DNA of 64,000 nucleotides from an uncultured Clostridia bacterium (GTDB taxonomy: Bacteria > Bacillota > Clostridia > TANB77 > CAG-508): positions 168-64,167 of the forward strand of contig CANQYS010000003.1 of NCBI GenBank assembly GCA_947628115.1, written 5' to 3'. Positions 3,141 to 50,909 of the stretch are shown piece by piece. A program made the position numbers and the translations under genes. Numbering within the stretch: position 1 is the first letter of the stretch; every line of letters begins with the position of its first letter. The notes beneath the pieces are model-generated. The model saw nothing but the letters and a program-made list of their open reading frames with translations. It was not told the origin of the DNA and made no database searches.

Positions 3141-3387
3141 GTGTTATCCTCTCCTTCTTTTGTATTGTTTGCATTTATTTTCTTATTTATGTGTATTATA
3201 GGTTATATGTTTTTATTTGTCAATTAGTTCTGCACTTTTTTAAAATAAATTTCTTAAATTTAATTTTCTTAAAAAATATTACCACATATTATTTTATTTT
3301 TTAATATTTTTTATGTTTATTTATAAATATATATTTTAGTTTTTCATGTTATTTGTTTAAGCAATGTATGATTCTATTGTAATTTAG

Positions 3388-6486: not shown

Positions 6487-7602
6487 TTATTTATTTCCTT
6501 TCTTTCTTAAGAAAGATGGAATATCTAAGTCTCCTTGCGTATCTTTATTTTCTGTTGGTGTTGGAATAGAATTTATTTTTTTATTCCAAGTATTTGTTAC
6601 TAAATTTTCTACACCTATACTAGATATTGCTGGTTCTTTTTCAAATCCTGTAGCAATAACTGTAATTGTTATTTCATCACCTAATGTCTCATCTGTTACT
6701 ACACCAAATATAATATTGGCTTCTGGATCCACGCTTCTTTGAATAAGTTCTGCTGCAGTGTTAGCTTCTTGTAATCCCAATTCGCTTCCACCTGTTATGT
6801 TTATAATAACACCTCTTGCTCCTTCTATAGATGTTTCTAGTAATGGACTTTGAATTGCTTGTTTTGCAGCATCTTCTGCTCTGTTTTCTCCACTTGCTCT
6901 ACCAATTCCCATATGTGCCATTCCTGTATTTAACATTACCGTTTTAACATCTGCAAAATCTAAGTTTATTAATCCTGGTACCGAAATTAAATCTGATATA
7001 CCCTGAACACCTTGTCTTAAAACATCATCCGCCATTTTAAATGCCTCTACTATTGATGTTCTTCTATCTATAATTTGTAATAATTTATCATTTGGTATAA
7101 CAACTAATGTATCTACTTTTTCTTTTAAATTAGCAATTCCTTTTTCTGCTTGATTTAATCTTTTCTTTCCTTCAAAAGTAAATGGTTTTGTAACAACTCC
7201 TATTGTTAATATTCCAAGTTCTTTTGCTGCTGCTGCAACTATTGGAGCTGCTCCAGTTCCAGTTCCTCCTCCCATTCCTGCTGTAACAAATACCATATCT
7301 GCTCCTCTTAGTACTTCTGCTATTTCAGCCTTACTTTCTTCTGCAGCTTGCATACCAATATCTGGATTAGCACCTGCTCCTAATCCTCTTGTTAATTTTT
7401 CTCCTATTTGAATTCTTGAATTCGCTTTTGATAATTGAAGAGCTTGTCTATCTGTATTAACTGCTATAAATTCAACATTTTTTATTCCAGATTCAATCAT
7501 CCTGTTTATAGCATTATTTCCAGCACCTCCAACACCAATTACCTTTATTGTTGCTGTACCATCCATCATATAACTGTTTTCTTCATAATCTGTATCCATC
7601 AT
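6487..7602 (-). CDS. ftsZ: Cell division GTPase FtsZ.
   Basis: GGGTGTG tubulin signature, [22 protein letters not shown]. Confidence 0.95.
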
Positions 7603-10347: not shown

Positions 10348-10432
10348 TATATATCTCCTCTTTATTTAATTTAACATGTATAATTATACATTATATTTTT
10401 ATAATTTTCAATCCTACACATATAAATTAATA

Positions 10433-10730
10433 AATTGGAGTTTGTGAGTGTAAACACTCACAGTGAATAGTGAAGATTGAATAGTGAATAATATAGGAAG
10501 AAAAATTGCATAAATGCAATTTTTCATACATTAATTATTAATTATTCACCATTAATTCTTCACTCTTCACTAAACAAACGCTGTAGAGGCGGACGACTCT
10601 GTCCGCCTGCAAATGGACCGCCCCCCAATGGTTAATTTAAGGTGAATTCTTTCGCAGTCCCAAAAATCCCCAAAATTAATGATTTTTAGGAACAGTCCCT
10701 AGAATTCCCCTTACACAAACTACAATTTAT
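10433..10730. mobile_element. MITE-like GC-rich palindromic repeat element (copy C). It has a degenerate left terminal inverted repeat (TIR), aattggagtttgtgag, and a right TIR, acaaactacaattt. Inside is a gcggac...gtccgcc hairpin unit plus the ctacagcgtttg motif.
   Basis: Shares TIRs and internal GC-rich hairpin units with the elements at 35341..35765 and 56908..57128. Confidence 0.5.
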
Positions 10731-12613
10731 AAATTAATTAAATTATAATTTATATTTAATTTATTTAATATTTCTTCCTCTCTATCAGAACATGTAAATA
10801 TTAAAACTTGATTATTTTTATAATTCTCGTAAATAAACTTTAAAATATTTTCTAATCTTTCATTATCATAATATGCAAATGTTTCATCTAATATAATTGG
10901 CATTTTTTCTTCTGTTATTTCATTCATCGTAGATAATCTAAGAGATAAATATAATTGATCAATTGTACCAATACTTAATTTATTACAATCTACGTATTCA
11001 CCGCTTTCTATTTCTACTTTAAGTCCATACTCACTATTAAAACTTACATTATTATATTTGCCATTAGATATTTTTTGCATTAATAAAGATAAATCTTTTG
11101 TAAATTTAGGTGTAATCTCATTTTTCATTTCATTATATGCTTCTTCTAAAGTTTCTTTTGCAATATTTATACTTTTTTCTAAATCTAGTAAATCTTTCAT
11201 TTGCTCTTTATAATATTCTAATTGTTCTTCACATTCAGATTTATTTTCTAATTTATTATCTATATCTTTTTCTTTAATAATTAATGTATTTAATTCTATT
11301 TTCTTATTATTATATTCTTTATTTAATATTTCTATTTGTTCATTTATAAATTCCAAATTATTATTAAATAATTTTATTATTTCTTCGTTATTAAAATATT
11401 TATTAAATTTATTTTTTATTAAAATTAATTCATCATTATTTTTTTTATTTATTTTTTCTTTTATATTTAATATTTCTTTTTCTTTATTATTTTTATTTTC
11501 TTCTAATATTTCTATTTCTTTTTCTATTTTTATTTCTTCTATTTTTTTATTTTTTTTAATTTTATTTAATTTATTTTTTCTAAAAATATAACTTAATATA
11601 TTTAATATTAAATAAACAATAGTACCATAAATAATTATTTTTTCTATAATTTTTGGTAAGTTAATAAAATTAATTAAAATATTTAATATTATTAATATTG
11701 AAATAAAAAATAAATTAATTATATTTTTTTTATTATTTTTTTCTTTTATTTTTTTATTATCATTTATTTTATTTTTTAAATAATTTATTTTTTCGCTATA
11801 TTCTTTTTTTATATTTTCATTAATATTAATTTTTTCATTTTCTTTTTCATTTTTTTCTTTAATATTTTTTATTTCATCAACTAAATTAATTTCTTTTTCT
11901 ATTATTTTTATTTGCTGTTCTACTTCTATTTTATTTTGTTTTATTTCTTTATTAATATCTAAAAAATAATCTATCTCTTTTTTATTTTTTTCTAATTCTT
12001 TTATTTTATCTGTAATATCATTTAATGGTCTTCCAACTGTTCTATCTGTTCCAACATCTTCAAGTAATTTTTTTGATAAATTTCCAACTACTTTTTTATA
12101 TGATGTATTATCTTCTCCCGAAGATAATATATTAGCTATTTTTTGTGTTAATAAGTTTTGATTGTTATTGTCTAAAATTACTCCTTGCTGTTCTATTAAA
12201 TTTGTATTTAAAAATAAAATTTCATCAATTTTCGTTTGATCATAAAAAAATTGATTTCCTTTATTTTTATCTATATTAAATTGCTTAGATATTTCTTCCA
12301 TATTATTATTATATATTTTTGGATTTTTTTTAGAAAATTCTCTAAAAATTTCAAATTCTTCTCCGTTATCTAATATATAATTTATTTTTCCAGAAAATTC
12401 TTCAGAATTCCATGGTTTATATTTTTCATAATCTGATATTTCTTTTCCATTTTTATTTTTTGAAATTCCATATAACATACAATATATAAATTTTAAAATT
12501 GTACTTTTACCTGATTCATTTTTTCCATATATTAAATTTATATTTTTTTCTAAATTAATTTCTTTATTTTTTATTTTTCCAAATCCATTTATTTTTAAAT
12601 AATTTATTTTCAA
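10727..12613 (-). CDS. YhaN/SbcC-like AAA ATPase (SMC-type head domains, coiled coil, two central TM helices).
   Basis: N-terminal Walker A GKNESGKST. C-terminal ABC signature LSIGTIDQLYLSLRL, Walker B IILDETFAYYD, and H-loop. Hydrophobic hairpin in the mid coiled-coil. Downstream of a Mre11/SbcD-like nuclease gene. Confidence 0.6.
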   Translation of the reverse strand: MKINYLKINGFGKIKNKEINLEKNINLIYGKNESGKSTILKFIYCMLYGISKNKNGKEISDYEKYKPWNSEEFSGKINYILDNGEEFEIFREFSKKNPKIYNNNMEEISKQFNIDKNKGNQFFYDQTKIDEILFLNTNLIEQQGVILDNNNQNLLTQKIANILSSGEDNTSYKKVVGNLSKKLLEDVGTDRTVGRPLNDITDKIKELEKNKKEIDYFLDINKEIKQNKIEVEQQIKIIEKEINLVDEIKNIKEKNEKENEKININENIKKEYSEKINYLKNKINDNKKIKEKNNKKNIINLFFISILIILNILINFINLPKIIEKIIIYGTIVYLILNILSYIFRKNKLNKIKKNKKIEEIKIEKEIEILEENKNNKEKEILNIKEKINKKNNDELILIKNKFNKYFNNEEIIKLFNNNLEFINEQIEILNKEYNNKKIELNTLIIKEKDIDNKLENKSECEEQLEYYKEQMKDLLDLEKSINIAKETLEEAYNEMKNEITPKFTKDLSLLMQKISNGKYNNVSFNSEYGLKVEIESGEYVDCNKLSIGTIDQLYLSLRLSTMNEITEEKMPIILDETFAYYDNERLENILKFIYENYKNNQVLIFTCSDREEEILNKLNINYNLINL

Positions 12614-13232: not shown

Positions 13233-14711
13233 TTATTCAAAAGATTTTAAACCTATTTCTATTGCTTTTTTTATGTACTCTTCCTCTTCTGGTTTATCTT
13301 TTAATCTTTTTAACATCTTGTTTATAAATATGCCTTTTAAATTTTTTTGTTTAGACAAAATGTCAAAATTGTACTCTATTTTTGTTTTATCCTTTACTTT
13401 TAAAATATTTTCTTTAGCAATTAGTTTACATATTTTATTTTTGTTTATTTCTATTTTTTTGGTTCCTTCAAGTATAATTTTATAGAATTTATCTTCTTCT
13501 ACATCAACTTTATTTATCTCTTCTATTAAATTTTCTTCTGAATTAATATGAGAAATGTTTATACTTTTTTCTGCAAAAGTCCTATTATCTATTTTTATAA
13601 ATTTTATATTTTTTTGTTTTAAGTCATTTCCTTTACTATTATTTATTTTGTCATTTTGATAAGCAATTTTATTTAAATTGTTTCTTTCTTTTTTTATTAA
13701 ATTGTTTCTTATTATTAAATTATTTATTTTATTTTTTTCTAAATTATTTTCAATTTTTAATTTATTTATTTTATTTTCTTCTATATTATTTTTTATTTTT
13801 AATTTATTTATTTTATTTTTTTCTGAATTATTTTTTATTTTTAATTTATTTATTTTATTTTTTTCTGAATTATTTTTTATTTTTAATTTATTTATTTTAT
13901 TTTTTTCTAAATTGTTTTTTATTTTTAATTTATTTATTTTATTTTTTTCTGAATTATTTTTTATTTTTAATTTTATTTTTTTATTTTTTCCTGAATTACT
14001 TTCTTTTTTTAATTTATTTATTTCTATATCTAAAAAACCATGTTCTCCAAGTTCATCAAATCCAAAAGAAATTAATGAGCCTGGATATATAAAATTATTT
14101 TCATTATTATTGTAATTTGATTTGTGAATATGTCCTAATGCAACATAATCAAATCCTACCTTTTTTAATTTCACAGAATTTATTGGATTATATTGCATAT
14201 CCAAAGTCTTACTAGCATCTAATGACCCATGAATTATTAATATATTTATTTTATTTTTATTTTTTATTTCAATTTCATCTATTTTAGAATCAATACAATA
14301 AAAATCAGAAAATCCATATCCATAAATATCTACATCTTCCAATTCTATTCTTTTTATTTCTCCTTTAAATATGGTTACATTTTCGTTCCATTCATATGTA
14401 TTATAAAAAGAATTATTTAAAAATGGGTCATGATTTCCTGGTGAAATAAAAATTTTTGTTTCTGGAATTGTTTTAAATAAATTATTTATATATTCTATAG
14501 TACTTTCTCTAATATATTCTTGCTCATATAAATCCCCTGATATAAATAAAAAGGGGATTCGTTCTTTTTTTATATATTCAATTGCTTTCTTAAAAGCCTC
14601 TCTTTGTTCTAATCTTCTAATACTAGCTAATTCTTTTTTTGAAGCTAGCACTGTAAATGGGCTATCAAAATGAATATCAGCCATGTGTACAAACCTCATA
14701 TTTACCTCCAA
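13233..14711 (-). CDS. sbcD: SbcD/YhaO-like DNA repair exonuclease (calcineurin-like phosphoesterase) carrying an internal 42-bp tandem-repeat insertion.
   Basis: MRFVHMADIHFDSPF, GDLYE, GNHD, and GHIH motifs. The C-terminal half contains about 7 tandem 14-aa units, KNKINKLKIKNNSE. Confidence 0.7.
   Translation of the reverse strand: MEVNMRFVHMADIHFDSPFTVLASKKELASIRRLEQREAFKKAIEYIKKERIPFLFISGDLYEQEYIRESTIEYINNLFKTIPETKIFISPGNHDPFLNNSFYNTYEWNENVTIFKGEIKRIELEDVDIYGYGFSDFYCIDSKIDEIEIKNKNKINILIIHGSLDASKTLDMQYNPINSVKLKKVGFDYVALGHIHKSNYNNNENNFIYPGSLISFGFDELGEHGFLDIEINKLKKESNSGKNKKIKLKIKNNSEKNKINKLKIKNNLEKNKINKLKIKNNSEKNKINKLKIKNNSEKNKINKLKIKNNIEENKINKLKIENNLEKNKINNLIIRNNLIKKERNNLNKIAYQNDKINNSKGNDLKQKNIKFIKIDNRTFAEKSINISHINSEENLIEEINKVDVEEDKFYKIILEGTKKIEINKNKICKLIAKENILKVKDKTKIEYNFDILSKQKNLKGIFINKMLKRLKDKPEEEEYIKKAIEIGLKSFE
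13690..13990. repeat. About 7 tandem copies of a 42-bp unit inside sbcD, encoding the KNKINKLKIKNN(S/L)E repeats.
   Basis: Direct read: gaattattttttatttttaatttatttattttatttttttct repeated head to tail. Confidence 0.8.
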
Positions 14712-19615: not shown

Positions 19616-20740
19616 ATGTACAATCATTACGGAACATTAAATGAGGAGGATTTTATGTGGGGAGATATAGCAATTACTTTTTTGTTAGCTTTTATAACTT
19701 CTTACGTTTTTACGCCATATACAGTAAGACTAGCAAGAAAAGTTAAAGCATTAGATATACCAAAAGATCGTAGAAAAATTCATAAAAAAATAATGCCAAG
19801 ACTTGGCGGACTTGCAATAGTTATAGGATTTTTTATTTCTGCTATTTATTTAATCATTGTAATGATAATAGAAAAAAAATTAGATATATTTACAAATTAC
19901 TATTATATAAAATTAATAGGTTTTTTTATTGCTGTTATTGTATTAGAAATCTTCTGCTATTTTGATGATACAAAAGGTATTAAACCAATAGTAAAACTAA
20001 TTGGTCAATTAATAGCTGCTGTAATTGTAGTTTGTAGTGGATTAGTAATAGATAGAATAGTTATAACAGGATCTGAAAGAATTATATCAAATGAAATATT
20101 TTTAAAAATATTTACTATTATATGGATAATTGGAATAACAAATGCTATAAATTTAATTGATGGGTTAGATGGACTATCAACAGGTGTGTCTTTAATATCT
20201 TCAATTTGTTTAATGATAATATTTATATTTAATGGTTCTCCTATTATTTCAATAATACTTGCAGCAGCATTGTCAGGATCATTACTTGGGTTTTTACCAT
20301 TTAATTTTAACCCGGCAAGAACATTTATGGGTGATACAGGCTCAAATTTTATAGGCTTTACATTAGCGATAATATCAATAATGGGTGTAGCCAAAACATA
20401 TACTGCAATAATAATTGTAGCTCCATTATTGGTACTTGCTTTGCCAATATTTGATACTTCATTTGCAATAGTAAGAAGAGTATTTAAAGAAAAATCCCTT
20501 AAAGCTATTTTTAAAGCTGATAGGGGACATCTTCACCACAAATTAATAGATAGGGGATATACCCAAAAACAAGCAGTATTTATATTGTATGGAATAAGTG
20601 CTACATTTGGTCTTTTTGCAATTATTCTTTTAGAAAGCGGATTTTGGAAAGCTATATCGTTTGCATTACTTGTAATTGCTATTACTGCAATCGGTTATAA
20701 AGATATATTTAGAATTAAAAAAAATAAAAAGAATATATAA
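19616..20740 (+). CDS. tagO: Undecaprenyl-phosphate N-acetylhexosamine-1-phosphate transferase (TagO/WecA, MraY/GT4 family).
   Basis: Multi-TM protein with the NAINLIDGLDGL motif and DRGHLHH. Confidence 0.8.
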   Translation: MYNHYGTLNEEDFMWGDIAITFLLAFITSYVFTPYTVRLARKVKALDIPKDRRKIHKKIMPRLGGLAIVIGFFISAIYLIIVMIIEKKLDIFTNYYYIKLIGFFIAVIVLEIFCYFDDTKGIKPIVKLIGQLIAAVIVVCSGLVIDRIVITGSERIISNEIFLKIFTIIWIIGITNAINLIDGLDGLSTGVSLISSICLMIIFIFNGSPIISIILAAALSGSLLGFLPFNFNPARTFMGDTGSNFIGFTLAIISIMGVAKTYTAIIIVAPLLVLALPIFDTSFAIVRRVFKEKSLKAIFKADRGHLHHKLIDRGYTQKQAVFILYGISATFGLFAIILLESGFWKAISFALLVIAITAIGYKDIFRIKKNKKNI

Positions 20741-35340: not shown

Positions 35341-35765
35341 TATATTATTAATTAAATAAATTGTAGTTTGTAGGGATAAATTCATTTTCAAATCTGTAGG
35401 GGCAGATTCCATATCTGCCCGGAATTATTTATTGTTTTTCGGGCGGAAATTGATTCCGCCCCTACGTTGTTTGCAATTGGTTGATTTGCTGATTTCTTTT
35501 GCGGGCGGACAGGGCCTCGTCCGCCCCTACACTTTATATGCCGAAATTCAAACAATTATTATAATTAAAAAATCTGAATTGACGAATGCGAGCGGAATGT
35601 TTGTATAAATTCTTAAAGGAAATCAATGGAGGAAGCGGTTACCGAGAGGCTCGATTGATTTACTTTTAGAATTTATAAAACACGCAGACGAAGCCGAGGA
35701 AACCGAAGATTTTTAATTATAATAATTGAATTCAATCATCAAAAAGAAATTTACAAACTACAATT
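35341..35765. mobile_element. MITE-like GC-rich palindromic element (copy D, about 425 bp). Its TIRs are aattgtagtttgta and tacaaactacaatt.
   Basis: Perfect 14-bp TIRs. Internal GC-rich hairpins tgtaggggcagat..atctgcccgg, cgggcggaaattgattccgcccctac, and gcgggcggacagggcctcgtccgcccctac, set in a roughly 25% GC background. Confidence 0.6.
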
Positions 35766-35883
35766 TTTATTTTCAAAGTATTTTAAATATAGTTTATATT
35801 GTTTTTGAAAATTTATACATTTTTTATAAATTTTTATGATATAATAAATTAAAATTTATTTTAATCTTTATGGAGGCTTTATT

Positions 35884-37015
35884 ATGAAAAAAATTATAAT
35901 TTTTTATGGTTCATATGGCGGTGGTCATTTATCTGCTGCTAGAAGTATAAAAGAATATATAGACACAAATTATTCAGATACCGAAACATGTTTAATTGAT
36001 TGTATTGAATATATTAATAAAGCCTTAAACAAAGTTACTACAAAAGCATATTCAGAAATGGCTAAAAATGCACATTGGGTATGGAAAAAAGTTTATTATA
36101 GTGCAGAAAAAGGAACTATTGCAACAATGAGTAATACTACTCAAAAGATAATGGCAATAAAATTAAATAAACTTTTGCAATACTATCAGCCTGACTTAAT
36201 AATTTCTACTCATCCTTTTAGTAGCCATATGTGTGCAATATTAAAGAAAAAGAAAAAAATAAACTCAAAAATTGCAACAATTATTACAGATTATGCACCT
36301 CATGGACAATGGCTTATGCATCCAGCATATATAGATTTTTTCTTTGTTGCACATGAAGGAATGAAACAAGATTTATTAAAAAGAGGAATAAAAGAAAATC
36401 AAATAAAAGTAACAGGAATCCCTTTATCGAATAGATTTTTAGCTAACTATAATAAAGAAAAAATATTAGCAGATTTTAATTTATCTTTAAATAAAAAAAC
36501 TATACTGTTTTTTGCCGGTCGGGGAACAAGGATTTGGCAAAGATAAAGTATTTAATATATTAAAAACTTTAATTGAAAAATTTCCATATATTCAAATAAT
36601 TGCTATTTCAGGAAAAAATGAAAAAATGAAACATCAATTTGATAATCTTGTTGCTGAAACTAATTCTACTAATAATGTAAAAGTATTAAAATTTACTAAT
36701 AAAATTCCAGAACTAATGAGTATATCTGATTTAGTTATAACAAAACCTGGTGGACTAACTACCACAGAAAGTTTAGCATCCGGTCTTCCTATAATAGTAA
36801 TTAACCCAATACCTGGTCAAGAAGAAGAAAATGCAAATTTTTTAGAAGAAAAGGGTGTTGCTATATGGATAAAAAAACATGATAATATTGAAGAAAAATT
36901 ATATAAACTATTAAATTCTCCAGATAAATTACAAACAATGAAAATAAATGCAAGACTTTTAGCTAAAAAAAATTCAACCAAAGATATTTGTGAAATATTG
37001 TTAGGACATATATAA
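35884..37015 (+). pseudogene. ugtP: UgtP-like processive diacylglycerol beta-glucosyltransferase (MGDG synthase N-domain plus GT-B C-domain). Frameshifted by an extra C at about 36530 (ggtCgggg).
   Basis: Two overlapping ORFs of 220 aa and 167 aa. Removing one C restores ...ILFFAGGEQGFGKDKV.... Strong match to UgtP: ITKPGGLTTTESLASGLPIIVINPIPGQEEENANFLEEKG. Confidence 0.75.
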
Positions 37016-37799: not shown

Positions 37800-37904
37800 A
37801 TTACATCATCCCTTCATAAATTGTATAGGGACAAAGCTTTTCCTGTTAGAATTACTAATCTTGATACGCTATGTCCCTATTACGCACCAATAAGTTATGT
37901 CATA

Positions 37905-41253: not shown

Positions 41254-41288
41254 TGGTGCACTTAGCTGGATTCGAACCAGCGGCCTCT
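41254..41288 (-). repeat. 35-bp fragment identical to the 3' end (T-arm, acceptor, and CCA) of tRNA-Arg(CCU). Putative att site marking the far end of an integrated island.
   Basis: tggtgcacttagctggattcgaaccagcggcctct is identical at 41254..41288 and 48981..49015, in the same orientation. Confidence 0.7.
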
Positions 41289-41590
41289 GCCTTATGAGAA
41301 ACTCGGTTACAATTTCAAATAGTGTTTGATTTTTTTAAAAGCCTTCATAAATCTAATAAATTGCTATGTTTTTTTAAATTATTTTTTTAATTCGATTTGT
41401 TTTTTTAAATAATTTTAAATACTATTTTATAGAATTCGCGACAATTTAGCGACACACTATTTAAAAATTCTATCCTAATCTTCTAGTCCTCCGTACACTA
41501 TAAAATTCATTCTTTTATATTTTACTTATAATATTCTAGCATAAATTTTATTATTATACAATATACTTACAAGATTATAATATACAAAAC

Positions 41591-41625
41591 TGGATAGAGG
41601 TAATAACCCCTATCCAGTCAAAGTC
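41591..41625 (-). terminator. Rho-independent terminator after the 491-aa MazF-like gene.
   Basis: ctggatagaggtaataacccctatccag hairpin plus T-run on the minus strand. Confidence 0.5.
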
Positions 41626-41643
41626 ATTTTGTGGATTATAGTT

Positions 41644-43119
41644 TTATGCAAATCTCTTGGCAAATACTTTTAATACAGCCATAAGAGAAATCTTCGGACA
41701 ACTCTCCACTAATTCAGGATGCAAATCCAACCATTTCTTAAAGTTTTCCTTCAAAATCGACTTAATGATCTCCTTTTTTACTTTAGGGTACATATTGTGC
41801 AATTCAAGGATAACATTTTCGTAGTTGATTCTCTTAATATCACAAGCAGCCACAAAGGACTGAGTAACAATTCTCTCTGATGTTGTCATACCAATATCAG
41901 TCAAAAAGTTATCAACCTGTTCTTTGACTTTTTTGGTAGGATCAAGTTTTTTCAGAGATTCTCCAATAATATCTAACAGGAAAGATTCCTCACTACCGAC
42001 CTTTTTTGCAGCTTTTTTAGGTTTAGGCTCAGTTGTAGTAACATCCGAGTTGTCAGCATTTACAGGCTTTGACTCTGTATCATCACCTTCAGTTGCATTC
42101 TCCTCACAAGTAGTTTTGACTGTTTCCTCATCCATAGCTACATTTGTTTCGGCTACTGCTGTTTCATCTTCGGTTTTGGCAACTTCAACAATTTCATTGT
42201 CAAAATCAGTTTTGATATCATCATCAGTCATTACAATATTACCTGTAAAATCAAATGTAGTACTTAACTTATCCAAAACCTTAGCAAAGAATTCAGGAGT
42301 AGCCTTGCCGATAACCTCTTGGAATCTTTCAGCTCTCAAGTATCTTCCCTTATCCAACAATGCTGTGCCACCAGTATAATAGTCGTTTTTATAAACGACA
42401 TCTTCAGGAACATCAAATGTAAGATAGGAAAGAGAAGTCAAGTTTTCCCTGATTTTGGTAATAGGCACTAAATATGCCATACCACCATTGGTAGTGCTAC
42501 ATACAATAGCAGAAACATGACCACCGTTGATTTCTCCTGCAAGGTGAATACCATAGTTACAATCTACAATATCTCCTACAGAGTATTCGATAGATCCCTT
42601 TTTGTTATATCTCATTGAGATTTCATTTATGGAAGTCAAGATAAACTCTCCGATTTCCTTTTCAGGGACATTCATCCTATACATTGCCCAGTAGGCAGTT
42701 CTCATAAATTTGTTGATTAAATTTTCAACATATTCATTTTCAAACTCTACCTTCTGGATAATCAAGTCATCTTCACTCTGTGGACCAACTACAGTAGGCT
42801 TGTTTTCAGGTTCGGCGGTTTCTTCGACAGTATCCTCAGACTTCGGCTCATCAACAATAGTAACACTATGAGAAGTTTCTACCGAAGTAGATTCATCAGA
42901 GGTATTGTCAATCATAACATTCAAAATGTTGTAATACTGGTCGATTAACTCTATAACAGAATCAATCATAGTATCATCAACATTTTCAACTGCGACAAAG
43001 CTGTTTTCTAAGTCAATCTGAATCCGACAGGAAATCTTGTTGACCCTTTTAATTAAGGAAACAACACTTCCTTCTTTTTTGGTAGTTACCTTAAATGTTA
43101 TTTTCTTCATTCTGTTCAT
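41644..43119 (-). CDS. Multi-domain protein. N-terminal domain shared with the upstream paralog, acidic linker, divergent MazF/PemK-like domain, acidic low-complexity region, and a C-terminal Spo0A_C-like helix-turn-helix domain.
   Basis: Residues ~180-290 (GDIVDCNYGIHLAGEINGGHVSAIVCSTTNGG...TALLDKGRYLRAERFQEVIG) align to the EndoA/MazF fold. The C-terminal ~70 aa resemble the Spo0A C-terminal domain. GC content is about 38%, against about 25% for the host. Confidence 0.5.
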   Translation of the reverse strand: MNRMKKITFKVTTKKEGSVVSLIKRVNKISCRIQIDLENSFVAVENVDDTMIDSVIELIDQYYNILNVMIDNTSDESTSVETSHSVTIVDEPKSEDTVEETAEPENKPTVVGPQSEDDLIIQKVEFENEYVENLINKFMRTAYWAMYRMNVPEKEIGEFILTSINEISMRYNKKGSIEYSVGDIVDCNYGIHLAGEINGGHVSAIVCSTTNGGMAYLVPITKIRENLTSLSYLTFDVPEDVVYKNDYYTGGTALLDKGRYLRAERFQEVIGKATPEFFAKVLDKLSTTFDFTGNIVMTDDDIKTDFDNEIVEVAKTEDETAVAETNVAMDEETVKTTCEENATEGDDTESKPVNADNSDVTTTEPKPKKAAKKVGSEESFLLDIIGESLKKLDPTKKVKEQVDNFLTDIGMTTSERIVTQSFVAACDIKRINYENVILELHNMYPKVKKEIIKSILKENFKKWLDLHPELVESCPKISLMAVLKVFAKRFA

Positions 43120-44275
43120 CCTCCTTTTTGATTAGGAAACTGTTTACTAAACGGATAAAATCGATAGTAGGAGATTTTCTGAACTTAAACTGTTCTTTTA
43201 TTCTCGCTACAATCAGCCTCTTAATCTCATCTTTCTCAACATTGTGCTCACTTTTAGCAACACTATCACATAATGTTTCTACATTGAAATAAGCATCTTT
43301 GGGCGAGATGAGTATTGCTTTGAAAAGGTATTGTACGCCGTTTCTTTGCATATCAAAGCCAAACAACTCAAGGATTTTTTCGGCTTTTATCTTATCAGAA
43401 TCTCTAGCTTGAGCAATTTTTAAAAGCTCGTTTACATCAATCAGAGATAACAACTGTACTTGTACCATATTCAAGTCTTTGCGTTCTTTAGGTGCATTAG
43501 TATCAAACTGGGGTACATCTCTATACACAGGCTTATCCACATACACCTTTTCAGTTTTGGTAATTACTTTTTCTTGCCTTTGCAAATTCAGCGAAATATC
43601 TATGATCTCCTGCATCTTATTCATGAATTCAGGTGTCATAGTTCCAATAAATTTGCGTAATCTTGTCTTGTCAACTGTTCGGATTTGTTCAGCCATAACA
43701 ACATTTTCTTCCATTCCAACACGAATTACATCATAGTCAATCATGTTTTCATTGGAAAAAACGAAGTGATAGTGAACAGGAACTCTTTTTTTTTGCTTGG
43801 TCGTACAAGATAGTACAATAGTAGTAGGCGAATGAGAATTTCCATCATCATTTTGCACAACTATTACATACCTCTTGTTTCCTTGCTCGCTGCCATAGGG
43901 TTCTCCGAAATCGCACAGATATACCTCACCTCGTTTTACAGTAGAATAGAGTAAATCATATTTCTCTGTGATTTGAGGTGCAAGTACAACATCCGAAGTT
44001 TTTTCTTCAACAACAGCTTTTCCTTTAGTGGAACTGGAAACAATTTCATCACTTTTAGGAAGATCAAATTCATTCAGAGTGAGTGGAAATACTTCACCAA
44101 AGAAGTTTTTAACATTTCTAATGGTTAGACCATTACAAAGTTCATCCAACAACTCATCAGAAATTTCACCATCTAAAGTGATTACCTGGTCAGAAATACT
44201 TGCCCTGATTTTATATTTGACAAGCAATTTACTAACCCGGCAGATGTCGAATGTTCTTGTTTGTAATTGTAACAC
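43091..44275 (-). CDS. Multi-domain protein containing a canonical EndoA/MazF (PemK) toxin domain between an N-terminal domain and a Spo0A_C-like C-terminal domain. Apparent GTG start with an AAGGAGGG ribosome-binding site.
   Basis: VKRGEVYLCDFGEPYGSEQGNKRYVIVVQNDDGNSHSPTTIVLSCTT...EQIRTVDKTRLRKFIGTMTPEFMNKMQEIIDISL aligns nearly motif for motif to B. subtilis EndoA. C-terminal GVQYLFKAIL...LCDSVAKSEHNVEKDEIKRLIVARI resembles the Spo0A_C domain. It overlaps the downstream gene by 29 nt. Confidence 0.6.
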   Translation of the reverse strand: MLQLQTRTFDICRVSKLLVKYKIRASISDQVITLDGEISDELLDELCNGLTIRNVKNFFGEVFPLTLNEFDLPKSDEIVSSSTKGKAVVEEKTSDVVLAPQITEKYDLLYSTVKRGEVYLCDFGEPYGSEQGNKRYVIVVQNDDGNSHSPTTIVLSCTTKQKKRVPVHYHFVFSNENMIDYDVIRVGMEENVVMAEQIRTVDKTRLRKFIGTMTPEFMNKMQEIIDISLNLQRQEKVITKTEKVYVDKPVYRDVPQFDTNAPKERKDLNMVQVQLLSLIDVNELLKIAQARDSDKIKAEKILELFGFDMQRNGVQYLFKAILISPKDAYFNVETLCDSVAKSEHNVEKDEIKRLIVARIKEQFKFRKSPTIDFIRLVNSFLIKKEDEQNEENNI

Positions 44276-44517
44276 TATGTAGCCCTCCTTATTAAATTTT
44301 TTTGGTTCTGGTTACAAAATACTTGTAATATCACACTCCTTTTTTATTGACATTTGCTAGACTCCAAAAAATATATTTTCTGGAATTTTCACAAAATTAT
44401 GTAAATATTATATCATTATTTTTTTGATTTTTCAATAGTATTACCACTAATTCAAATAAAATATAAAATGCAACTTAAAACAGCTAATACATCAACTGTT
44501 TTGAGTTGCATAAAATA

Positions 44518-45006
44518 TTACTTATTAAGATTTCTTTGACACTTTCTGTAAAGCTTGCGCCACGTCATTCTTTCGCCCATCCTAGAAAAAATGTTAGTAG
44601 TATGAAGCCAATAATATGTGGACGAATCACAGAAGCGATGTCCTATTGCTCTGATATGCCTTTTGATTGCGTGCATTATTTTTACTAACGCAACATCATC
44701 AGCAGTGCTAAGAATCTGCTCCAAAACCTTGTCTGAGACATAAGGCAAAATCCAGCTTACTTTGTACGCAAGATATTCTTCCTGCTTTATCTGCGCTGCC
44801 AAATTACTTACAATTTTGACCTGATCATCAGTTGAGAACACCTGGATATATCTATAGTGATATTTCACTAAATCTTTCATAAGTTTTTTGCGACAGCCTT
44901 CTTTAGTCTCGATGCAGTTTTGAATACTTGCTAATGTTTGGCGATTACCTGTCTCCAGATACGCATCAATTGAGTTTGTAAGTTCCCGATATTCGTTATA
45001 ATCCAT
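44518..45006 (-). CDS. Hypothetical Arg-rich protein (162 aa) in the GC-richer part of the island.
   Basis: ORF with locally elevated GC content. No recognisable family. Confidence 0.4.
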   Translation of the reverse strand: MDYNEYRELTNSIDAYLETGNRQTLASIQNCIETKEGCRKKLMKDLVKYHYRYIQVFSTDDQVKIVSNLAAQIKQEEYLAYKVSWILPYVSDKVLEQILSTADDVALVKIMHAIKRHIRAIGHRFCDSSTYYWLHTTNIFSRMGERMTWRKLYRKCQRNLNK

Positions 45007-45145
45007 AATGATTTCCTCCTTTACAAGTGTTTAATTTAACTTTTCGGTGTTTTTGATATATTAAAAGTGGTCCAAAAAATTAGGAAGTTCTAATTGAAAA
45101 ATGGTCCACTTTTAAAATACTCTAAATATATAGTAAAATATATAT

Positions 45146-45910
45146 TTGGAGGCGAAAGGAATGATAAAATTAATGGATAAAGGAGCAATAATTAAATTAA
45201 AGGAACAAGGATATTCTAATAGACAAATACAGAAATTAACAAAAATAGATAGAAAAACAGTTAGTAAATATTGGAATGAATATTTAGAAAATCTTAAAAA
45301 ATTAAGTAATGAAAAAGATTCTTTGAAAATAATAGAAATACAAGAAGCAATAACTTCAGAACCTAGATATAATGTTCAAAGTAGAATGAGAAGAAAATTA
45401 ACAGATGACTTTTTTGTTCATCTAAAAGACATTTTAAATTCAGAAGAAGCTGCTATTGAGTATATGGAAAGTATTTTAATAAAACTAAATGAAAATAGTA
45501 AAATTGAAGAAGAAAAATTACATTTAAAGACTACTAAACCGCCACTAGAATTAGCTAATATAAAAGAAAGTATTGTTAATAAATACAGTTTCATACAAGT
45601 TGAAAATAATTTTTACTCTGTTCCTGAATACTTAGTTGGTTTTAAAGTTACAAGCAAAATTTACTACAATAAAATTCTCATTTATTCAAATAATGAATTT
45701 GTTTGTGAGCATAAAAAATTAGATGGATGTAAGAAGATAAGTGCCGATATTAGACATTACTTAAAAACACTTACCTTCAAACCTGGTGCCTTGAAAAACT
45801 CCTATGTTTTAAAAAGTAATCCAAAACTCAAATCCATCTATGATAGATATTATACCAATAATCCTAAAAAATTCATAGATATAATATCAAAAAATAAAGA
45901 AAAAAAATGA
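45146..45910 (+). pseudogene. istA: IS21 transposase IstA remnant. The DDE catalytic core is deleted.
   Basis: See the IS21 element. 254 aa against about 400-500 aa for intact IstA. Confidence 0.55.
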
Positions 45911-46045
45911 TGAAGAATTATCTAAAATCCTAACGACTAATTCAGAAAATTTATCTGAACTAACAAGATATAGTAATAATATAAATAATTTAACGAGAGT
46001 TCAAACTAGTATGTATAATAAAATAATGATAGGAGTTGTAAATAA

Positions 46046-46482
46046 ATGAATATAAAAGAAAATTGTAAAATATTAAAATTGTCATATATATTTAAAAATT
46101 ATGAAGAAGAAATAAAGGAAGCAAAACAAACTAAAAAAGATGTTGGAGATTTTCTAGATGAACTTTTAGAAGGAGTGCCTTAAATGCATATAAGAAAAAG
46201 TTTGAGAAATACGATTTAGTAATACTAGATGAATTAGGTTATGTATCATTTGATAAAGAAGGATGTGAAATATTATTTAATCTATTATCGAATAGAAATG
46301 ATAAAGGATCTATCATAATAACAACAAATTTAACATTTGATAGATGGGAAGAAATATTTAAAGATGCAATGCTCACAGGAGCTATGGTAGATAGGCTAGC
46401 ATACAAAGCACATATACTTGATATATCAAGAGATGTAAGTCATAGATATGAAGAAACTTTATCTTGGAAAGAAAATAAATAA
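46046..46482 (+). pseudogene. istB: IS21 helper ATPase IstB remnant. The AAA core is deleted and the frame is disrupted.
   Basis: Conserved C-terminal IstB motifs are present. An internal stop at about 46183 breaks the N-terminal piece. Confidence 0.55.
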
Positions 46483-46764
46483 CTAATTTTTATGTTTGAA
46501 AAAGTGGACCATTTTTTCAAATATAACTTGGACCAATTTTCACTTGACAAATACAGTAATCTCAAAAATCAGTAGTCTAAATAAATTTCGGATTTCGGTA
46601 AGAAGAAATCCTACTAAAAGCTTATGCTATCCATATAATTCTCAAAATTTGAACTTTATTCAGAATTATGGTATACTTTATATAGATGGTAAATTTATGT
46701 TAATGCCATCCGATATTTCGGAGGTATTAACTCCGAAATATGAAAATTCATAGGAGGTTTTACC

Positions 46765-47073
46765 ATGGAAAAAATGAAAGTTGCACTTATTGGACTAAGG
46801 TTCAATGCGGATAAGGCGGTGAACACAGCAACAATTAACTTACCCATGTATTCAAAAATTTTATCTGTAACGGCAAAAAATGATAAACCTTGCCTGTGGG
46901 TAAATTTTATGGCTCCATCAAATTATTTCTTTACTAAAAAAGCATGGCGTGAGTTCCAATTTGTTATTGTGCGGTGCAATTATGACGAATTTGAAATTGA
47001 TGGGCACAATTATATTGCCACTATCGAGGTTGACAACAATTTATTCGCCATATTTTACAAAAAGATACAGTAA
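46765..47073 (+). CDS. Hypothetical protein (102 aa).
   Basis: ORF with an RBS-like aggaggtt upstream, followed by a palindromic terminator. Confidence 0.4.
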   Translation: MEKMKVALIGLRFNADKAVNTATINLPMYSKILSVTAKNDKPCLWVNFMAPSNYFFTKKAWREFQFVIVRCNYDEFEIDGHNYIATIEVDNNLFAIFYKKIQ

Positions 47074-47084
47074 TTCATTTTTTT

Positions 47085-47140
47085 TCAAGTATTAATAAAC
47101 GGTGCACATAGAAATATGTGTACCGTTTATTAATACCATT
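47085..47140. terminator. Bidirectional palindromic terminator between convergent genes.
   Basis: ttaataaacggtgcacatagaaatatgtgtaccgtttattaa, a near-perfect 19-bp inverted repeat. Confidence 0.5.
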
Positions 47141-47591
47141 TTTCATATCTATCTTTTTTCTTTGTTTTAGCAATATCTTCTTGCTCTTTCCTCATTTGTT
47201 TTTCAATTTCTATAACTTTCTTAACATTTGGTGTATCTTCTAAAATATAATTTGCTATTTTTATATTTTTTCTGTGTCTATTCAATATTGTAGTACAATT
47301 ATCTCGTTTTGATTTATACTCTTTTATTAAGTTATCATCTATGCAATTTCTTAATTTATTCCTATATTTTTGCCTTAAGTTAGTAATGTCTTCAATTTCT
47401 TTTTCAGTTTGTGAAATATAACTTTTTACATCATCTACTGTTTTTAGTTTTTCTGATACAATAAGTCTAATCCCATTAGAATATCGCTCCAATTTTCTAA
47501 CCTCTTGTTTCATTTCTGGAGATAATGGAGTATAGCGTGGCTTTTCTTTTGGTAGTAGATCCATAAAATAGTAAAAAGATAAGAATAACAT
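47130..47591 (-). CDS. Hypothetical charged coiled-coil protein (153 aa). Possibly a mobilization/replication protein remnant.
   Basis: ORF only. Upstream (47603..47960) are out-of-frame fragments suggesting a decayed larger gene. Confidence 0.3.
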   Translation of the reverse strand: MLFLSFYYFMDLLPKEKPRYTPLSPEMKQEVRKLERYSNGIRLIVSEKLKTVDDVKSYISQTEKEIEDITNLRQKYRNKLRNCIDDNLIKEYKSKRDNCTTILNRHRKNIKIANYILEDTPNVKKVIEIEKQMRKEQEDIAKTKKKDRYEKWY

Positions 47592-48040
47592 ATCAATTCC
47601 ACTTAATTTTTTATATTTTTAAAATTTCCTTTTAATCTATGAACTTTGTATTTATTCTTCTTTCTAGGCTTAGTAAATTCTAAATATCTATTTTGATAAT
47701 AATATGGGTTATTTTCAACTGTTATTGCAATATTTTGTGGTAAATATTTTTCTCCTAAATGATACATTCTTACAGCCTTTTTATGATATGTATCCATTAA
47801 ATTTTGATAGTGGATATTTATTTTCCAAACTACCTATGTAAAAGTAATTAGGTTCGTTAAAGAATAAGTATAGTCTATTCTTAATAATTACTTGATGTGG
47901 CTCTACATACGCTAAATTGGTATGTTCCACAATGTGCAGGTAACCTTCTTTAATTTCTGGTTTAACCTGCTTTTTTCAATATTTTTGGTCAAAAAAAGAC
48001 CGTTCCTTAATTTTTATTTTAAATAAAACTTGGAAATATT

Positions 48041-48817
48041 GTGTTTTTATGTTATACTTATAAAAAATATATGGAGGATACGATAATGGGAGAAAGATTT
48101 GACGACGATAGAAAAGAAACTATAACTGAAGAACAAAAAGCAGCAAGATGGGATGCAATACATTCACGAGTAACAAATGTTGAAAAAATCAGACAGCAAT
48201 ATGATGGATGGCTAGAAACAGATGAAAGACTAGCCAAACAATTAGAACAATGTAAAACACCTATTTTAGATTTAGGATGTGGAATAGGAATAGATACATT
48301 GCATTTAGTTGAAAATGGACATAGAGTTATTGCTTGTGATTTTTCAACTGAAGCTCTTAACCAAGTAAAACAAAATATTCCAAACGAAAAAGTAAAAGTA
48401 TTAAAGTTTAATATGAAAGAAAAATTTCCTTTTGGTTCAGAGCTTTTTGAATTTATAATTGCCAACAAATCTATTCATTATTTCTCTGAAAAGGAAACAA
48501 AAAATTTAATACATGAGTTATATAGAATACTTAAAACTAATGGAATATTTGCATTTGTTGTAAATTCAACTAATGATAGCAATTTTGGTGCAGGACAAGG
48601 TAAAATGCTTGAAGAGAATTTTTATGAAGTTAGAGGAACTACTAAAAGATTTTTTGATGAAGAATCCTTAAAAAATTTTTTTGATAATGAACATTGGGAA
48701 TTTATTTATATGAAAGAAGATGAAATACAGGGAGATAGAATAAAAACAATACAACTACAGAATAATAGTGATAACAACAAAAAAATAACATGGACTTGTA
48801 TGGTAAGAAAAAAATAA
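48041..48817 (+). CDS. Class I SAM-dependent methyltransferase.
   Basis: ILDLGCGIGIDTLHLVENGHRVIACDFS motif I and post-I acidic residue. Confidence 0.7.
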   Translation: MFLCYTYKKYMEDTIMGERFDDDRKETITEEQKAARWDAIHSRVTNVEKIRQQYDGWLETDERLAKQLEQCKTPILDLGCGIGIDTLHLVENGHRVIACDFSTEALNQVKQNIPNEKVKVLKFNMKEKFPFGSELFEFIIANKSIHYFSEKETKNLIHELYRILKTNGIFAFVVNSTNDSNFGAGQGKMLEENFYEVRGTTKRFFDEESLKNFFDNEHWEFIYMKEDEIQGDRIKTIQLQNNSDNNKKITWTCMVRKK

Positions 48818-48980
48818 ATATTATTTGTCTTTGTCATTGACGCAAGTCCTAACCCCCTATGAGTTTTGACCTGTGGTACAAAACTCGGGGGATACATACT
48901 GAAAAAACTAATAAAAAAATACCATCCTTTTTAGAATGGTATTATATATTCTGTTCTATTAGTTCGAACAGATACGTTAT

Positions 48981-49057
48981 TGGTGCACTTAGCTGGATTC
49001 GAACCAGCGGCCTCTCCCTTAGGAGGGGAGCGCTCTATCCTACTGAGCTATAAGTGC
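48981..49057 (-). tRNA. tRNA-Arg (anticodon CCU).
   Basis: The minus-strand sequence folds as a cloverleaf, GCACTTATAGCTCAGTAGGATAGAGCGCTCCCCTCCTAAGGGAGAGGCCGCTGGTTCGAATCCAGCTAAGTGCACCA. The anticodon loop is CUCCUAA, so the anticodon is CCU. The T-loop is TTCGAAT and the 3' end is CCA. Confidence 0.85.
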
Positions 49058-49181: not shown

Positions 49182-50909
49182 TTATTTTTTATTGTTATAA
49201 AGTTCTTTATAATATCCATTTAAAACTATGAGTTCGTCATGCGTTCCCATTTCTTTTATTTTTCCGTCTTTTATGAAAATTATTAAATCTGCTTCTTTTA
49301 TTGTTTTTAATCTATGTGCAATTATAAAAGAAAATTTATTTCTTAAAACTTCTTGTGTTGCTTTTATTACTTTTTGTTCGAATTCTAAATCTAGATTAGA
49401 TGTAACCTCATCTAAAATAAGAATATCAGTATTCTTCAATATTGCTCTTGCAAAATTTAAAAGTTGTTTTTCTCCATATGATATTTTATCAGTATAAATA
49501 TCTATTAGTGTATTATATCCTTCTTCTAAAGAAGTTATTTTATCATGGAGTCCTATTTTTTTGCATACATTAACAACCTCATCGTCACTTATTTCTCTAT
49601 TGTTTCCGTATTTTATATTTTCCATTATGCTCATATGAAAAATTATAGGTTCTTGAAATACATAACTAATATTTTTTCTCAAACTGTTTAAATCATATTC
49701 TAAATAATTTATATTATTTATTAAAATTTCGCCACCGGTTATATCATAAAATCTTGGTATTAAATTAACTAATGTAGTCTTTCCGCATCCACTTTTACCA
49801 ACCAAAGCAATTTTTATTGGTCTATTAACTTCAAAATTAATATCTTTTAATATCTCATTTATTCCATCATAACTCATTTTAACATGATTGAATTTTATGC
49901 TTTTAACATTTTCTAATTTTACAGTAGATTCTTTTTTTTCTTTTTCTGTTTTTACCATATTATATATTTTCATGTAAGAATTATAATTACTAGTAGCTTC
50001 ATTTTTAAATTCTACAATTATATTAATACGATAATCTAAATCTGCAATGTAATTTCTAAATAAAATAATTAATGCTAAAGAACTCATTCCTGAAGCAATA
50101 TTAATTCCACCAATATATATGATAGCTAAAGTAGTAAAAAAACTTACAAAGCTAAATAAATATTTATGTATATATATAATTTTATTATATTTTAGTACTT
50201 CATTAGTAGTATTCTTAAGCAATTCATCTATTTCACTTATATTACTTTCTTCAATTCTTAAAGATTTATTAGTAGCATAGCTATTTATAAATTCATTGGT
50301 TTTAGACGATAATTTAAGTCTTATATCTTGTAATTTTTTTATTACACTATAATTTTTTTTATATAATGGTTTCAAGGAAAAATAACAACTAAAAAATATT
50401 ATTGTTGTAATTAATGCTAGTTTATAATTCAAAAATAATATAATAATTATTATATAAAAAATATCTTTATATTCTATTGGATATATTCTCATATAAGTCC
50501 AAGGAAATAGTAAAGATGCATTTTTAGCTTCTGTTGTATTTAAAGAAATAAGTTCTCCTACTTGATAATTGTCAATATCCTTAATTTTAGACTTAATCAC
50601 GCTTCTAAAAAATTTACCCTGTATTGCTTTATCTTCGTCTACCATTAAGTCAGCACGTTTTTGATTATATATATATATTTGCGCTGTTCTTAAAATAATT
50701 AAAAAAATATAAATGCAAATACAAAAATAAACATGCTCAAATTTATTATTAGTCAAATATGTATCAATTATTAGTGATGTAATTATCGGCCCAGAAAATA
50801 CTAAAATACTTGGTAATAGTCTAAATAAATACCAAAAAATAATTCTTGATTTATTACCTCCAAACTCTAGTAATCTTTTTTTATTGCTTATATTATTCAT
50901 AATTATCAC
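49182..50909 (-). CDS. ABC exporter, fused permease and ATP-binding subunit (half-transporter B).
   Basis: Six-TM N-domain. GKSGCGKTT Walker A, LSYGEKQLL signature, ILILDEVTS Walker B. Confidence 0.85.
   Translation of the reverse strand: MIIMNNISNKKRLLEFGGNKSRIIFWYLFRLLPSILVFSGPIITSLIIDTYLTNNKFEHVYFCICIYIFLIILRTAQIYIYNQKRADLMVDEDKAIQGKFFRSVIKSKIKDIDNYQVGELISLNTTEAKNASLLFPWTYMRIYPIEYKDIFYIIIIILFLNYKLALITTIIFFSCYFSLKPLYKKNYSVIKKLQDIRLKLSSKTNEFINSYATNKSLRIEESNISEIDELLKNTTNEVLKYNKIIYIHKYLFSFVSFFTTLAIIYIGGINIASGMSSLALIILFRNYIADLDYRINIIVEFKNEATSNYNSYMKIYNMVKTEKEKKESTVKLENVKSIKFNHVKMSYDGINEILKDINFEVNRPIKIALVGKSGCGKTTLVNLIPRFYDITGGEILINNINYLEYDLNSLRKNISYVFQEPIIFHMSIMENIKYGNNREISDDEVVNVCKKIGLHDKITSLEEGYNTLIDIYTDKISYGEKQLLNFARAILKNTDILILDEVTSNLDLEFEQKVIKATQEVLRNKFSFIIAHRLKTIKEADLIIFIKDGKIKEMGTHDELIVLNGYYKELYNNKK

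Follow-up and report, generated by a model that had tools for sequence, protein, structure and literature searches.

Repetitive extragenic palindromic (REP) sequences and their doublets, the REPINs, are known together with REP-associated tyrosine transposases (RAYT, or TnpA-REP) from Escherichia coli, Pseudomonas, and Stenotrophomonas (PMC2817692, PMC3116915, PMC3733652, PMC3686654). They are GC-rich imperfect palindromes of 20-30 nt with a 5' GTAG that occur as singlets, tandems, and inverted doublets, mostly between genes and sometimes within them, and one genome may hold several REP classes, each matching a lineage of Y1 HUH transposases. The terminal inverted repeat (TIR) families known as TIRtrons or TIRYT-associated families (Di Nocera et al. 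2013, PMC3733652) are moderately abundant, carry inverted repeats instead of GTAG hairpins, occur alongside REPs, and are often dimeric or clustered; RAYT-like Y1 enzymes have been proposed to mobilize them. The Correia or NEMIS elements of Neisseria, reviewed in PMC10969869, are intergenic and 100-200 bp long, with conserved inverted ends, TA flanks, hairpin folds, internally differing subtypes, and no known transposase. Features of each of these systems recur in three inserts that we describe here from a 64,000-nt stretch of DNA (the window; 25.7% GC) of an uncultured Clostridia bacterium (contig CANQYS010000003.1), one of which, at 35357-35767, covers most of the piece displayed.

The window encodes the sporulation genes sleB, ypeB, and spoIIR, and together with the low GC content these indicate a spore-forming, Clostridium-like host of low GC. 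[quoted passage not shown] We found no single family but nested mosaics, built from three or more kinds of small, palindromic, non-coding selfish repeats that are independent of one another; their ends and hairpins are separable, REP units also stand alone, and copy B contains another MITE. The inserts are nested, repeated, structured, and non-coding, and they differ between species and between paralogues.

Ends, hairpins, and a nested MITE in the window

Each of the three inserts contains GC-rich hairpins and is bounded by TAAATTGTAGTTTGT and its inverse, as had been claimed. The 14-mer AATTGTAGTTTGTA occurs exactly five times in the window, and at up to two mismatches it was matched 10 times compared to 3.0 +/- 1.7 in shuffled sequences, none of which reached 10. 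Convergent pairs of the 14-mer enclose copy A at 10433-10727 (two mismatches at the left end and one at the right), copy B at 35359-35765, and copy C at 56910-57125, both ends being exact in the latter two. The inverted repeat is longer than the 14-mer and reaches T-AAATTGTAGTTTGT, giving full extents of 10431-10729 (299 bp), 35357-35767 (411 bp), and 56908-57127 (220 bp). Copy B had been placed from 35341; it begins 16-18 nt later, at 35357 or 35359 depending on the repeat considered, with TAAATTGTAGTTTGTA (35357-35372) and TACAAACTACAATTTT (35752-35767) as its ends. The degenerate left end attributed to copy C is in fact that of copy A (AATTGGAGTTTGTG), and both ends of copy C are perfect. 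The fifth exact 14-mer, at 20023-20036, has no partner end nearby and lies within the coding region of ORF 19616-20740 (open reading frame), which was read as a putative glycosyl-phosphate transferase-like membrane protein.

As to base composition, the hairpin units alone reach 52-78% GC, and the elements as a whole are 35-36% GC against the 25.7% of the window. Folded as single-stranded DNA, the three inserts gave energies of -55.3, -80.4, and -40 kcal/mol (z = -10.6, -8.7, and -7.5), and the inverted ends close the predicted fold in all three. Rfam searches at gathering and E-value thresholds found no family covering the elements, and a protein search with the spurious ORF across copy B returned no matches.

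Copy A is made up of heptamer-repeat hairpins (10447-10575), one plus-strand REP (10579-10615), and half of a core that we call type-2 (10655-10713), and its final T contributes to the stop codon that ends ORF 10727-12613. Copy B lies between divergent promoters and holds three REP units: R1 on the plus strand (35392-35420; GTAG-GGGCAGAT-tccat-ATCTGCCC), which together with its T-tract is the only terminator-like site of the region, and R2 (35441-35469; GTAG-GGGCGGAA-tcaat-TTCCGCCC) and R3 (35503-35534; GTAG-GGGCGGAC-gaggccct-GTCCGCCC) on the minus strand. R2 is inverted relative to R1, forming a REPIN-like doublet. The same order is found in copy C, with R1 at 56943-56971 (plus), R2 at 56992-57020 (minus), and R3 at 57051-57080 (minus). 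A decayed element occupies 55401-55572 on the minus strand between the PGM and UDPGP genes; it retains two REP units in the same orientation (55401-55429 and 55460-55491), heptamer repeats (55505-55558), and a single degenerate end, TCTAAACTGCAATTTA, at 55557-55572, the opposite end being lost.

Nested within copy B is a further element of 176 bp (35553-35728) with inverted ends of about 20 bp (CAATTATTATAATTAAAAA) and a long internal hairpin. It is bounded by an 8-bp direct repeat, AATTCAAA at 35545-35552 and AATTCAAT at 35729-35736, and alignment of copies B and C revealed its site to be filled in the former and unfilled in the latter. With inverted ends, a target duplication, and an unfilled site, this element is a conventional MITE insertion, and nesting therefore produces size differences between copies.

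GTAG-tagged REP units and RAYT-family genes

The GC-rich hairpins are far more frequent than expected by chance, the CCGCCCCTACA hairpin ends being matched at no more than one mismatch 10 times in the window compared to 0.07 expected. Written GTAG-first, some 20 units found in the window and in its relatives share a layout of approximately 45 nt, (TGCAAAYGNT)-GTAG-stem-loop-stem-(GAAAA), with stems of 6-9 bp, loops of 3-9 nt, and the GTAG immediately 5' of the stem in every genuine unit listed. The stem cells are paired in 134 of 137 cases with compensatory changes present, and stem positions 4, 5, 7, and 8 each use three Watson-Crick pair types. Covarying segments include GGAA/TTCC, AGAT/ATCT, GGAC/GTCC, GAAC/GTTC, and TCGCCG/CGGCGA. 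In structure, the GC-rich hairpins are GTAG REPs. Their setting differs from that of described REP systems in that the host is a 26% GC spore-forming Clostridium, the units carry a conserved 5' TGCAAAY extension, and many are embedded in repeats of another kind, whose inverted ends are AT-rich.

Approximately 12 units are found at six sites in the 64 kb, and short-read contigs of the same strain break at them. They are arranged singly (1229-1276), in tandem (55401-55491 and 935-1040), or as the inverted doublet of copies B and C. The doublet recurs, at 86-91% identity, at two sites of the related contig designated L127. The partial units reported outside the three copies are also real, lying at 935-964, 1000-1040, 1229-1276, and 55401-55491, with a remnant near 3060-3095. 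The minus-strand unit at 1229-1276, which has an ATTTGCA tail, is absent from a 97%-identical paralogous stretch near 3380, and hence this is an indel of one unit.

The description of the elements as intergenic and next to terminators was only partly right, since copy B lies between promoters and the units at about 905-1090 and 3060-3095 are in frame within the 5' coding part of pilin-like paralogues. There, on the minus strand of about 905-1090 and 3040-3140, REP units are translated as parts of the leaders of two such genes. In the first, one unit is intact (935-964) and the other degenerate (1000-1040), and in the second, ORF 1521-3140, the minus-strand remnant GATGTAGGGGATGTGCC encodes part of the leader. 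These leaders are unusually long, at 45-90 residues upstream of a KG|ITLIALI cleavage-type motif, and include REP-coded peptides such as ...NTVGADATFRPLF... and ...KDVGDVPWTT....

The REP/RAYT option raised for the hairpins fits them well, given the GTAG tag, the covarying stems, and the presence of the same units inside RAYT-family genes of low-GC metagenome contigs elsewhere. A low-GC locus from the REP scan (L017) contains a Y1-type gene (6690-7286) with three REP hairpins within its reading frame. This gene has 1524 protein relatives, many with precomputed PF01797 matches and one named RayT by its source. The best NCBIfam match of the gene and its relatives was "REP-associated tyrosine transposase" (E values of 1e-15 to 1e-22, under the curated equivalog cut-off), and the sole match in the PDB was E. 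coli TnpA-REP (4ER8).

Four of the relatives, P0208, P0200, P0224, and P0240, have in-frame REP units at two fixed positions and in inverted orientation, bracketing the HUH region. In RAYT-family genes of several phyla, one in-frame unit follows the first beta-strand (peptides such as VGADDPVRP), and the other, inverted, is placed directly behind the HUH motif (for example, RAEMDSAPT or GGQGRPPLH). The REP of P0208 (L135/L136; L135 1615-2160, between a DUF4321 gene and groES) has the stem GGGCGGAC and is identical over 26 of 26 nt to window positions 57051-57076. P0200 (L140/L141; L140 1193-1723) carries the GGGCGGAA stem of the R2 type, and P0240 carries the GGGCAGAT stem of the R1 type, with the peptides VGADSISAQ and RADMESAPT. 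The REP of P0224 (L139, 4001-4585, between rpoB and rpoC), GGGCGGAT, has a related stem, with no identical stem in the window, and three further REPs lie upstream of the gene. Searches with tblastn also located REPs inside the RAYT genes of L050 (Faecousia) and L067 (Nitrospirota). Unlike in described REP systems, the cognate REP pair is found in frame inside the ORF of these RAYT genes, around the HUH region, besides or instead of flanking the gene.

The three REP types of the window, with stems GGGCAGAT, GGGCGGAA, and GGGCGGAC, appear to match three RAYT lineages that carry the corresponding REP within the gene. This assignment draws on sequence identity and on established REP systems (PMC2817692, PMC3479197, PMC8266576), not on a gene in this genome, where a RAYT is presumably present. 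The possibility that the elements are a decayed RAYT gene was rejected, as six-frame comparison recovered the REP-coded peptides only and no other RAYT sequence. By eye, the ATTTGCA tail and the codons following the REP of P0200 are similar at only 15 of 24 nt.

The REP pattern is common to more than 120 loci of many phyla with GC contents of 25-73%. A 28-nt unit identical to that at about window positions 57050-57077 was detected in Vescimonas fastidiosa (L131, NZ_AP023416.1, 316477-316640), a replicon of the 57%-GC Oscillospiraceae type on which the pattern occurs at 26 places, in BIME-like REP arrays (after the bacterial interspersed mosaic elements) with a unit identical to R3 of the window. 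The R3-type 26-mer was also present in five IMG/VR viral contigs (L144-L148), and the Vescimonas REP was the sole match in phage and plasmid collections. Identity of the R3-class unit across these replicons suggests either horizontal spread or very strong constraint. Within-strain polymorphism of the elements was sought in three contigs, L121, L142, and L143, and none was found; these contigs match the window at 99-100% identity or stop within the repeats.

Constant ends and changing cores in related species and metagenomes

Contigs syntenic with the window were reached via SleB homologues and were 82-89% identical at the DNA level (L123-126, L127-130, L132, and L134, including L128, GCA_947629355.1, and L134, GCA_947588635.1). 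Had the elements been confined to the window the family would have been in doubt, but TIR-bounded copies were found at several sites in these related species and in metagenome contigs. The consensus of 27 ends is T-AAATTGT-[A/T]-[G/A]-TTT-G-T, the shared motif being TAAATTGTWRTTT; positions 1-7 and 10-12 are almost invariant, and variation is limited to positions 8-9 and those past 13. A is the first base of all 27 ends, and a T precedes the element at 23 of them.

The spacer between sleB and the monogalactosyldiacylglycerol (MGDG) synthase gene, where copy B lies, holds a framed palindrome in each of five species, at essentially the same junctions and with five unrelated cores. In the window the core consists of the REP doublet, the third REP, and the nested MITE; in L127 it is the doublet only, R3 being missing from that orthologous element. 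The core of L123 is of type-2 (GGAAAATCCTAGGGACTGTCCC...TTTTGGGGATTTTTGGGACTG), as is the right half of copy A in the window. L132 has a perfect 100-bp palindrome, and L134 has heptamer-repeat arms (GAGAAGT-like), a decayed form of which is seen at window positions 55505-55558. A more distant relative, L133, has no element at this site. At three more orthologous spacers (recR-MGDG 3' end, upstream of the signal recognition particle RNA, and UDPGP-PGM) the element is full, reduced to a solo end, or absent according to species. Deletion across short direct repeats at the hairpin base could account for the solo ends. Copy C coincides with the exact end of synteny with L127 (window 56886-57196 versus L127 1-206), upstream of a shared promoter where the neighboring gene differs, and it therefore marks a rearrangement breakpoint.

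Since the same ends frame unrelated cores devoid of REPs, they form a module separate from that of the GC-rich hairpins, and REP units are in turn found without ends. The frames have ends of 13-16 bp, span 100-411 bp, and contain no ORF; structurally they are MITEs, short of a proven duplication of the target and of a parent element. The search for a duplicated target site of the frames and for their cognate transposase, both proposed in the earlier note, found neither. The only flanking sequence seen is T...A, and TA, being palindromic, is no proof of duplication.

These orthologous sites bear on the possibility that the paired ends are fixed host sites for docking, recombination, or protein binding that predate the split of the species, with cores swapped by a dedicated recombinase or by gene conversion, so that the process is cassette exchange and not transposition. 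Such exchange would account for the sleB-side junction, which is identical in four of the five species with unrelated cores, for the confinement of end variation to positions 8-9 and past 13, and for the persistence of solo ends where cores have been lost. One core type is often repeated within a species, as with the type-2 core found at three sites in L123, although core types are mixed within L127, L132, L134, and the window. We nonetheless regard this explanation as improbable: 1.3 Mb of loci contained no "empty frame" with abutting ends, the elements have no recombinase linked to them, the element is wholly missing at some sites, and nested insertion with palindrome deletion can give the same picture.

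That the elements are now immobile and kept as host RNA or DNA structures, such as terminators, mRNA stabilizers, small RNAs, or insulators, is very improbable in our estimation. Their folds are very stable, their positions are intergenic, one REP with its T-tract scores as terminator-like, and REPs of E. coli have such side roles. Against this, there was no Rfam match, the T-run lies 5' and not 3' of the hairpin in most REP units, and units are found in coding leaders and across stop codons. The unrelated cores at one site speak against a sequence-specific role, and the units are subject to indels between paralogues and between species.

The metagenome scan targeted paired ends 70-100 nt apart and yielded 31 loci of 25-58% GC, about two thirds of which we read as clear members of the family. 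Nearly all family members are palindromic throughout; the non-palindromic members, L161 and L173, come from contigs of about 55% GC and adjoin genes that read as mnmE- or coaE-like from their ORF translations. In 11 loci, each on a different contig, a single site of a human-gut organism carries the type-2 core, with second copies nearby. A metagenome scan for the type-1 core gave no match. Heptamer cores lie within the ends in L159, L163, and L177. A TIR-framed doublet of GTAG REPs occurs in contigs of about 50% GC (L150 and L165), and fusions of the ends with a GTAG REP were found in L170 and L134. Three metagenome members are at the central TA of a palindromic flank. Paired ends were found in none of the viral contigs.

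Location at a central TA is relevant to the reading of the TIR frames as cut-and-paste MITEs, in which the 13-15-bp ends would be bound by a DDE transposase encoded elsewhere, of the IS630/Tc1-mariner-like type, with insertion at TA and duplication of that dinucleotide; the REP hairpins would be passengers or later insertions. Tc1/mariner enzymes have a known preference for the central TA of a palindrome. The conserved ends with their flanking T (23/27) and initial A (27/27), the size of 100-410 bp without an ORF, the many unrelated cores sharing the same ends as in MITE superfamilies, and the varying presence between species would all be expected of such elements. However, TA is self-complementary and may merely extend the inverted repeat, and no single-TA empty site was found. 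Neither was an insertion sequence with these ends: L144-L179 contain no long-range pair and no end-adjacent transposase, and the window and the genus-level loci were searched up to a pair spacing of 520 bp only, short of the spacing of an insertion sequence. Random insertion at TA would further leave unexplained why up to five species have elements at the same four intergenic sites although the cores differ, and DDE enzymes do not need palindromy of the whole element. We consider this explanation a serious candidate, if a doubtful one.

Among described repeats, the Correia/NEMIS elements resemble these in form only, for their 26-bp end sequence is unrelated, as are their host phylum and cores, and the cores here are unrelated modules including REP hairpins, not deletion variants. 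Enterobacterial BIMEs and the neisserial intergenic mosaic elements with their dRS3 repeats (NIME/dRS3) are intergenic arrays of mosaic build, with short constant repeats and variable modules in alternation. As here, their locations are conserved between related species and their repeat content differs. Each mosaic here differs from those arrays in being framed by two convergent ends, and to our knowledge no sequence is shared, the BIME spacer motifs and dRS3 repeats being absent from these elements. The searchable literature, including a 2024 review of prokaryotic MITEs, yielded no description of these sequences, nor of MITEs or REPs in Clostridia, and searches with the end and REP sequences gave unrelated primer matches only. 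The GC-rich hairpins and the MITE are of known repeat types, and we did not find the family of TIR ends with REPs inside in that literature.

Movement of the elements and their surroundings

Because no element encodes an enzyme, all must move in trans, and in the model that we propose this would hold for the nested REP units, the TIR foldback frames, and the MITE alike. We give this model as a whole about an even chance. REP units would serve as substrates of RAYT-type Y1 (HUH) transposases that bind the GTAG-tagged hairpin on single-stranded DNA, cut it, and rejoin it; judged from the sequence matches and from analogy with known REPs, this putative mobilization in trans is the best supported layer. 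The ends, T-AAATTGT-WR-TTTG-T, would form a separate foldback family in which they alone are constant, the core being one of several palindromic modules: the REP doublet, the type-2 GGGACTGTCCC module, heptamer-repeat arms, or another perfect palindrome. Frames would move as single-stranded hairpins, a RAYT- or TIRYT-like Y1 enzyme recognizing the stem of the paired ends. Nested insertion, transfer of sequence from copy to copy, and deletion stimulated by the hairpins would replace the cores over time. Copy B has gained an ordinary MITE with its 8-bp target duplication. Effects on the host, namely transcript hairpins, added leader residues, and replaced stop codons, would be by-products.

For the TIR frames, the hairpin-based Y1 mechanism is a tentative choice that, within the overall model, we put somewhat below an even chance. 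It is favored because of the palindromy of whole elements, the recurrent fusions of ends with GTAG REPs, and the link of TIR families to RAYT-like genes elsewhere (PMC3733652), and the strong folds (z of -7.5 to -10.6) together with full palindromy are expected if the hairpin is the substrate. The DDE alternative has nearly as much support. Ends that stay at one site while cores change fit neither the Y1 nor the DDE model cleanly and leave room for the docking-site or cassette-exchange explanation, at the low probability given above.

Several observations weigh against the proposed model. Neither the window nor approximately 150 kb of related loci encodes a Y1 or other transposase for these elements, the sole transposase match in the window being an IS21/Mu-like fragment within an unrelated island, and it is unproven that the RAYT contigs belong to this genus. 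The 14-nt ends do not flank the RAYT genes examined (L017 and L135-L141). The GTAG hairpin is missing from most cores, and the GTAG within the window's ends is replaced in relatives by GTTG, GTAA, or GTGA; we dropped these GTAGs as a RAYT tag owing to this lack of conservation. Conserved inverted ends with TA flanks are, in textbook terms, the mark of MITEs moved by DDE transposases and not that of Y1 elements. Clean empty sites sought in L123, L127, L132, and L134 were not found, flanks there being too diverged or holding solo-end remnants only. Chance matches in generic palindromes or fold-back contigs probably make up part of the 31 metagenome hits (L160, a fold-back, and L153).

TIRtrons differ in that their TIRs flank the transposase gene, whereas no RAYT gene examined here is so flanked, and the TAAATTGT..TTT ends are absent from the RAYT genes of L017, L135-L141, L050, and L067; the link is by analogy only. 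A bolder possibility is that the T-AAATTGT-WR-TTTG-T ends are the constant recognition arms of an unrecognized hairpin-element system widespread in Clostridia (hosts of 25-58% GC), in which cores, including RAYT-type REP doublets, would be exchanged at fixed docking sites by a new TIR-specific Y1 transposase or recombinase. We think its chances slim.

Several neighboring features of the window were observed in addition. An island of 7.7 kb (41268-48995; 33-37% GC) is inserted at tRNA-Arg (48981-49057) and bounded by a direct repeat of the 3' end of the tRNA, GGATTCGAACCAGCGGCCTCT, at 41268 and 48995. Two large proteins that have PemK/MazF-like domains are encoded on it, as is the IS21/Mu-like transposase fragment. 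L123 and L127 lack the island, the tRNA directly adjoining a deaminase gene, and their syntenic regions also lack two ABC-transporter-like genes found beside the tRNA at 49182-52659. The genes for MGDG synthase (35884-37015) and UDP-sugar pyrophosphorylase (55574-56822) are each split into two ORFs; L123, L127, and L134 have an intact MGDG synthase of 376 aa. As contigs L121 and L143 of the same strain show the splits too, these are not errors of this assembly alone but frameshifts or pseudogenes.

A perfect 74-nt palindrome at 53544-53617, between the convergent ATP_bind_3 and PGM genes, has no TIR motif and is probably a bidirectional terminator; a related palindrome lies at the matching position in L132. 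The spacer between ybaB and recR contains a hairpin (GGGACA.AG...CTATGTCCC) at window positions 37820-37890, L123 7650-7720, and L132 7710-7780, which is conserved across species but absent in L127. This hairpin may be a regulatory structure or one more small palindromic element. Finally, eight to nine tandem 42-nt repeats at 13680-14030 encode a lysine/asparagine-rich repeat (KNKINKLKIKNNSE) in ORF 13233-14711, read as a putative phosphoesterase-like protein.

REPs and RAYTs have been studied almost only in Proteobacteria, and here several REP classes are found in a gut Clostridium of 26% GC. The picture is extended by RAYT-family genes with their own in-frame REP pair around the catalytic HUH region, by the same REP sequence in many phyla, and by a family of AT-rich ends that keeps its ends constant, interchanges its palindromic cores, and occupies the same intergenic sites across species. 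For this clade, the repeats break short-read assemblies, with L121 and L142 ending inside them, and they alter gene ends through stop codons and long pilin leaders, with one break of synteny at copy C. If a docking-site system were indeed at work, it would join REP biology to cassette-like turnover, and should the cognate enzyme be found, these elements would provide a tractable case for the recognition, nesting, and replacement of hairpin elements.

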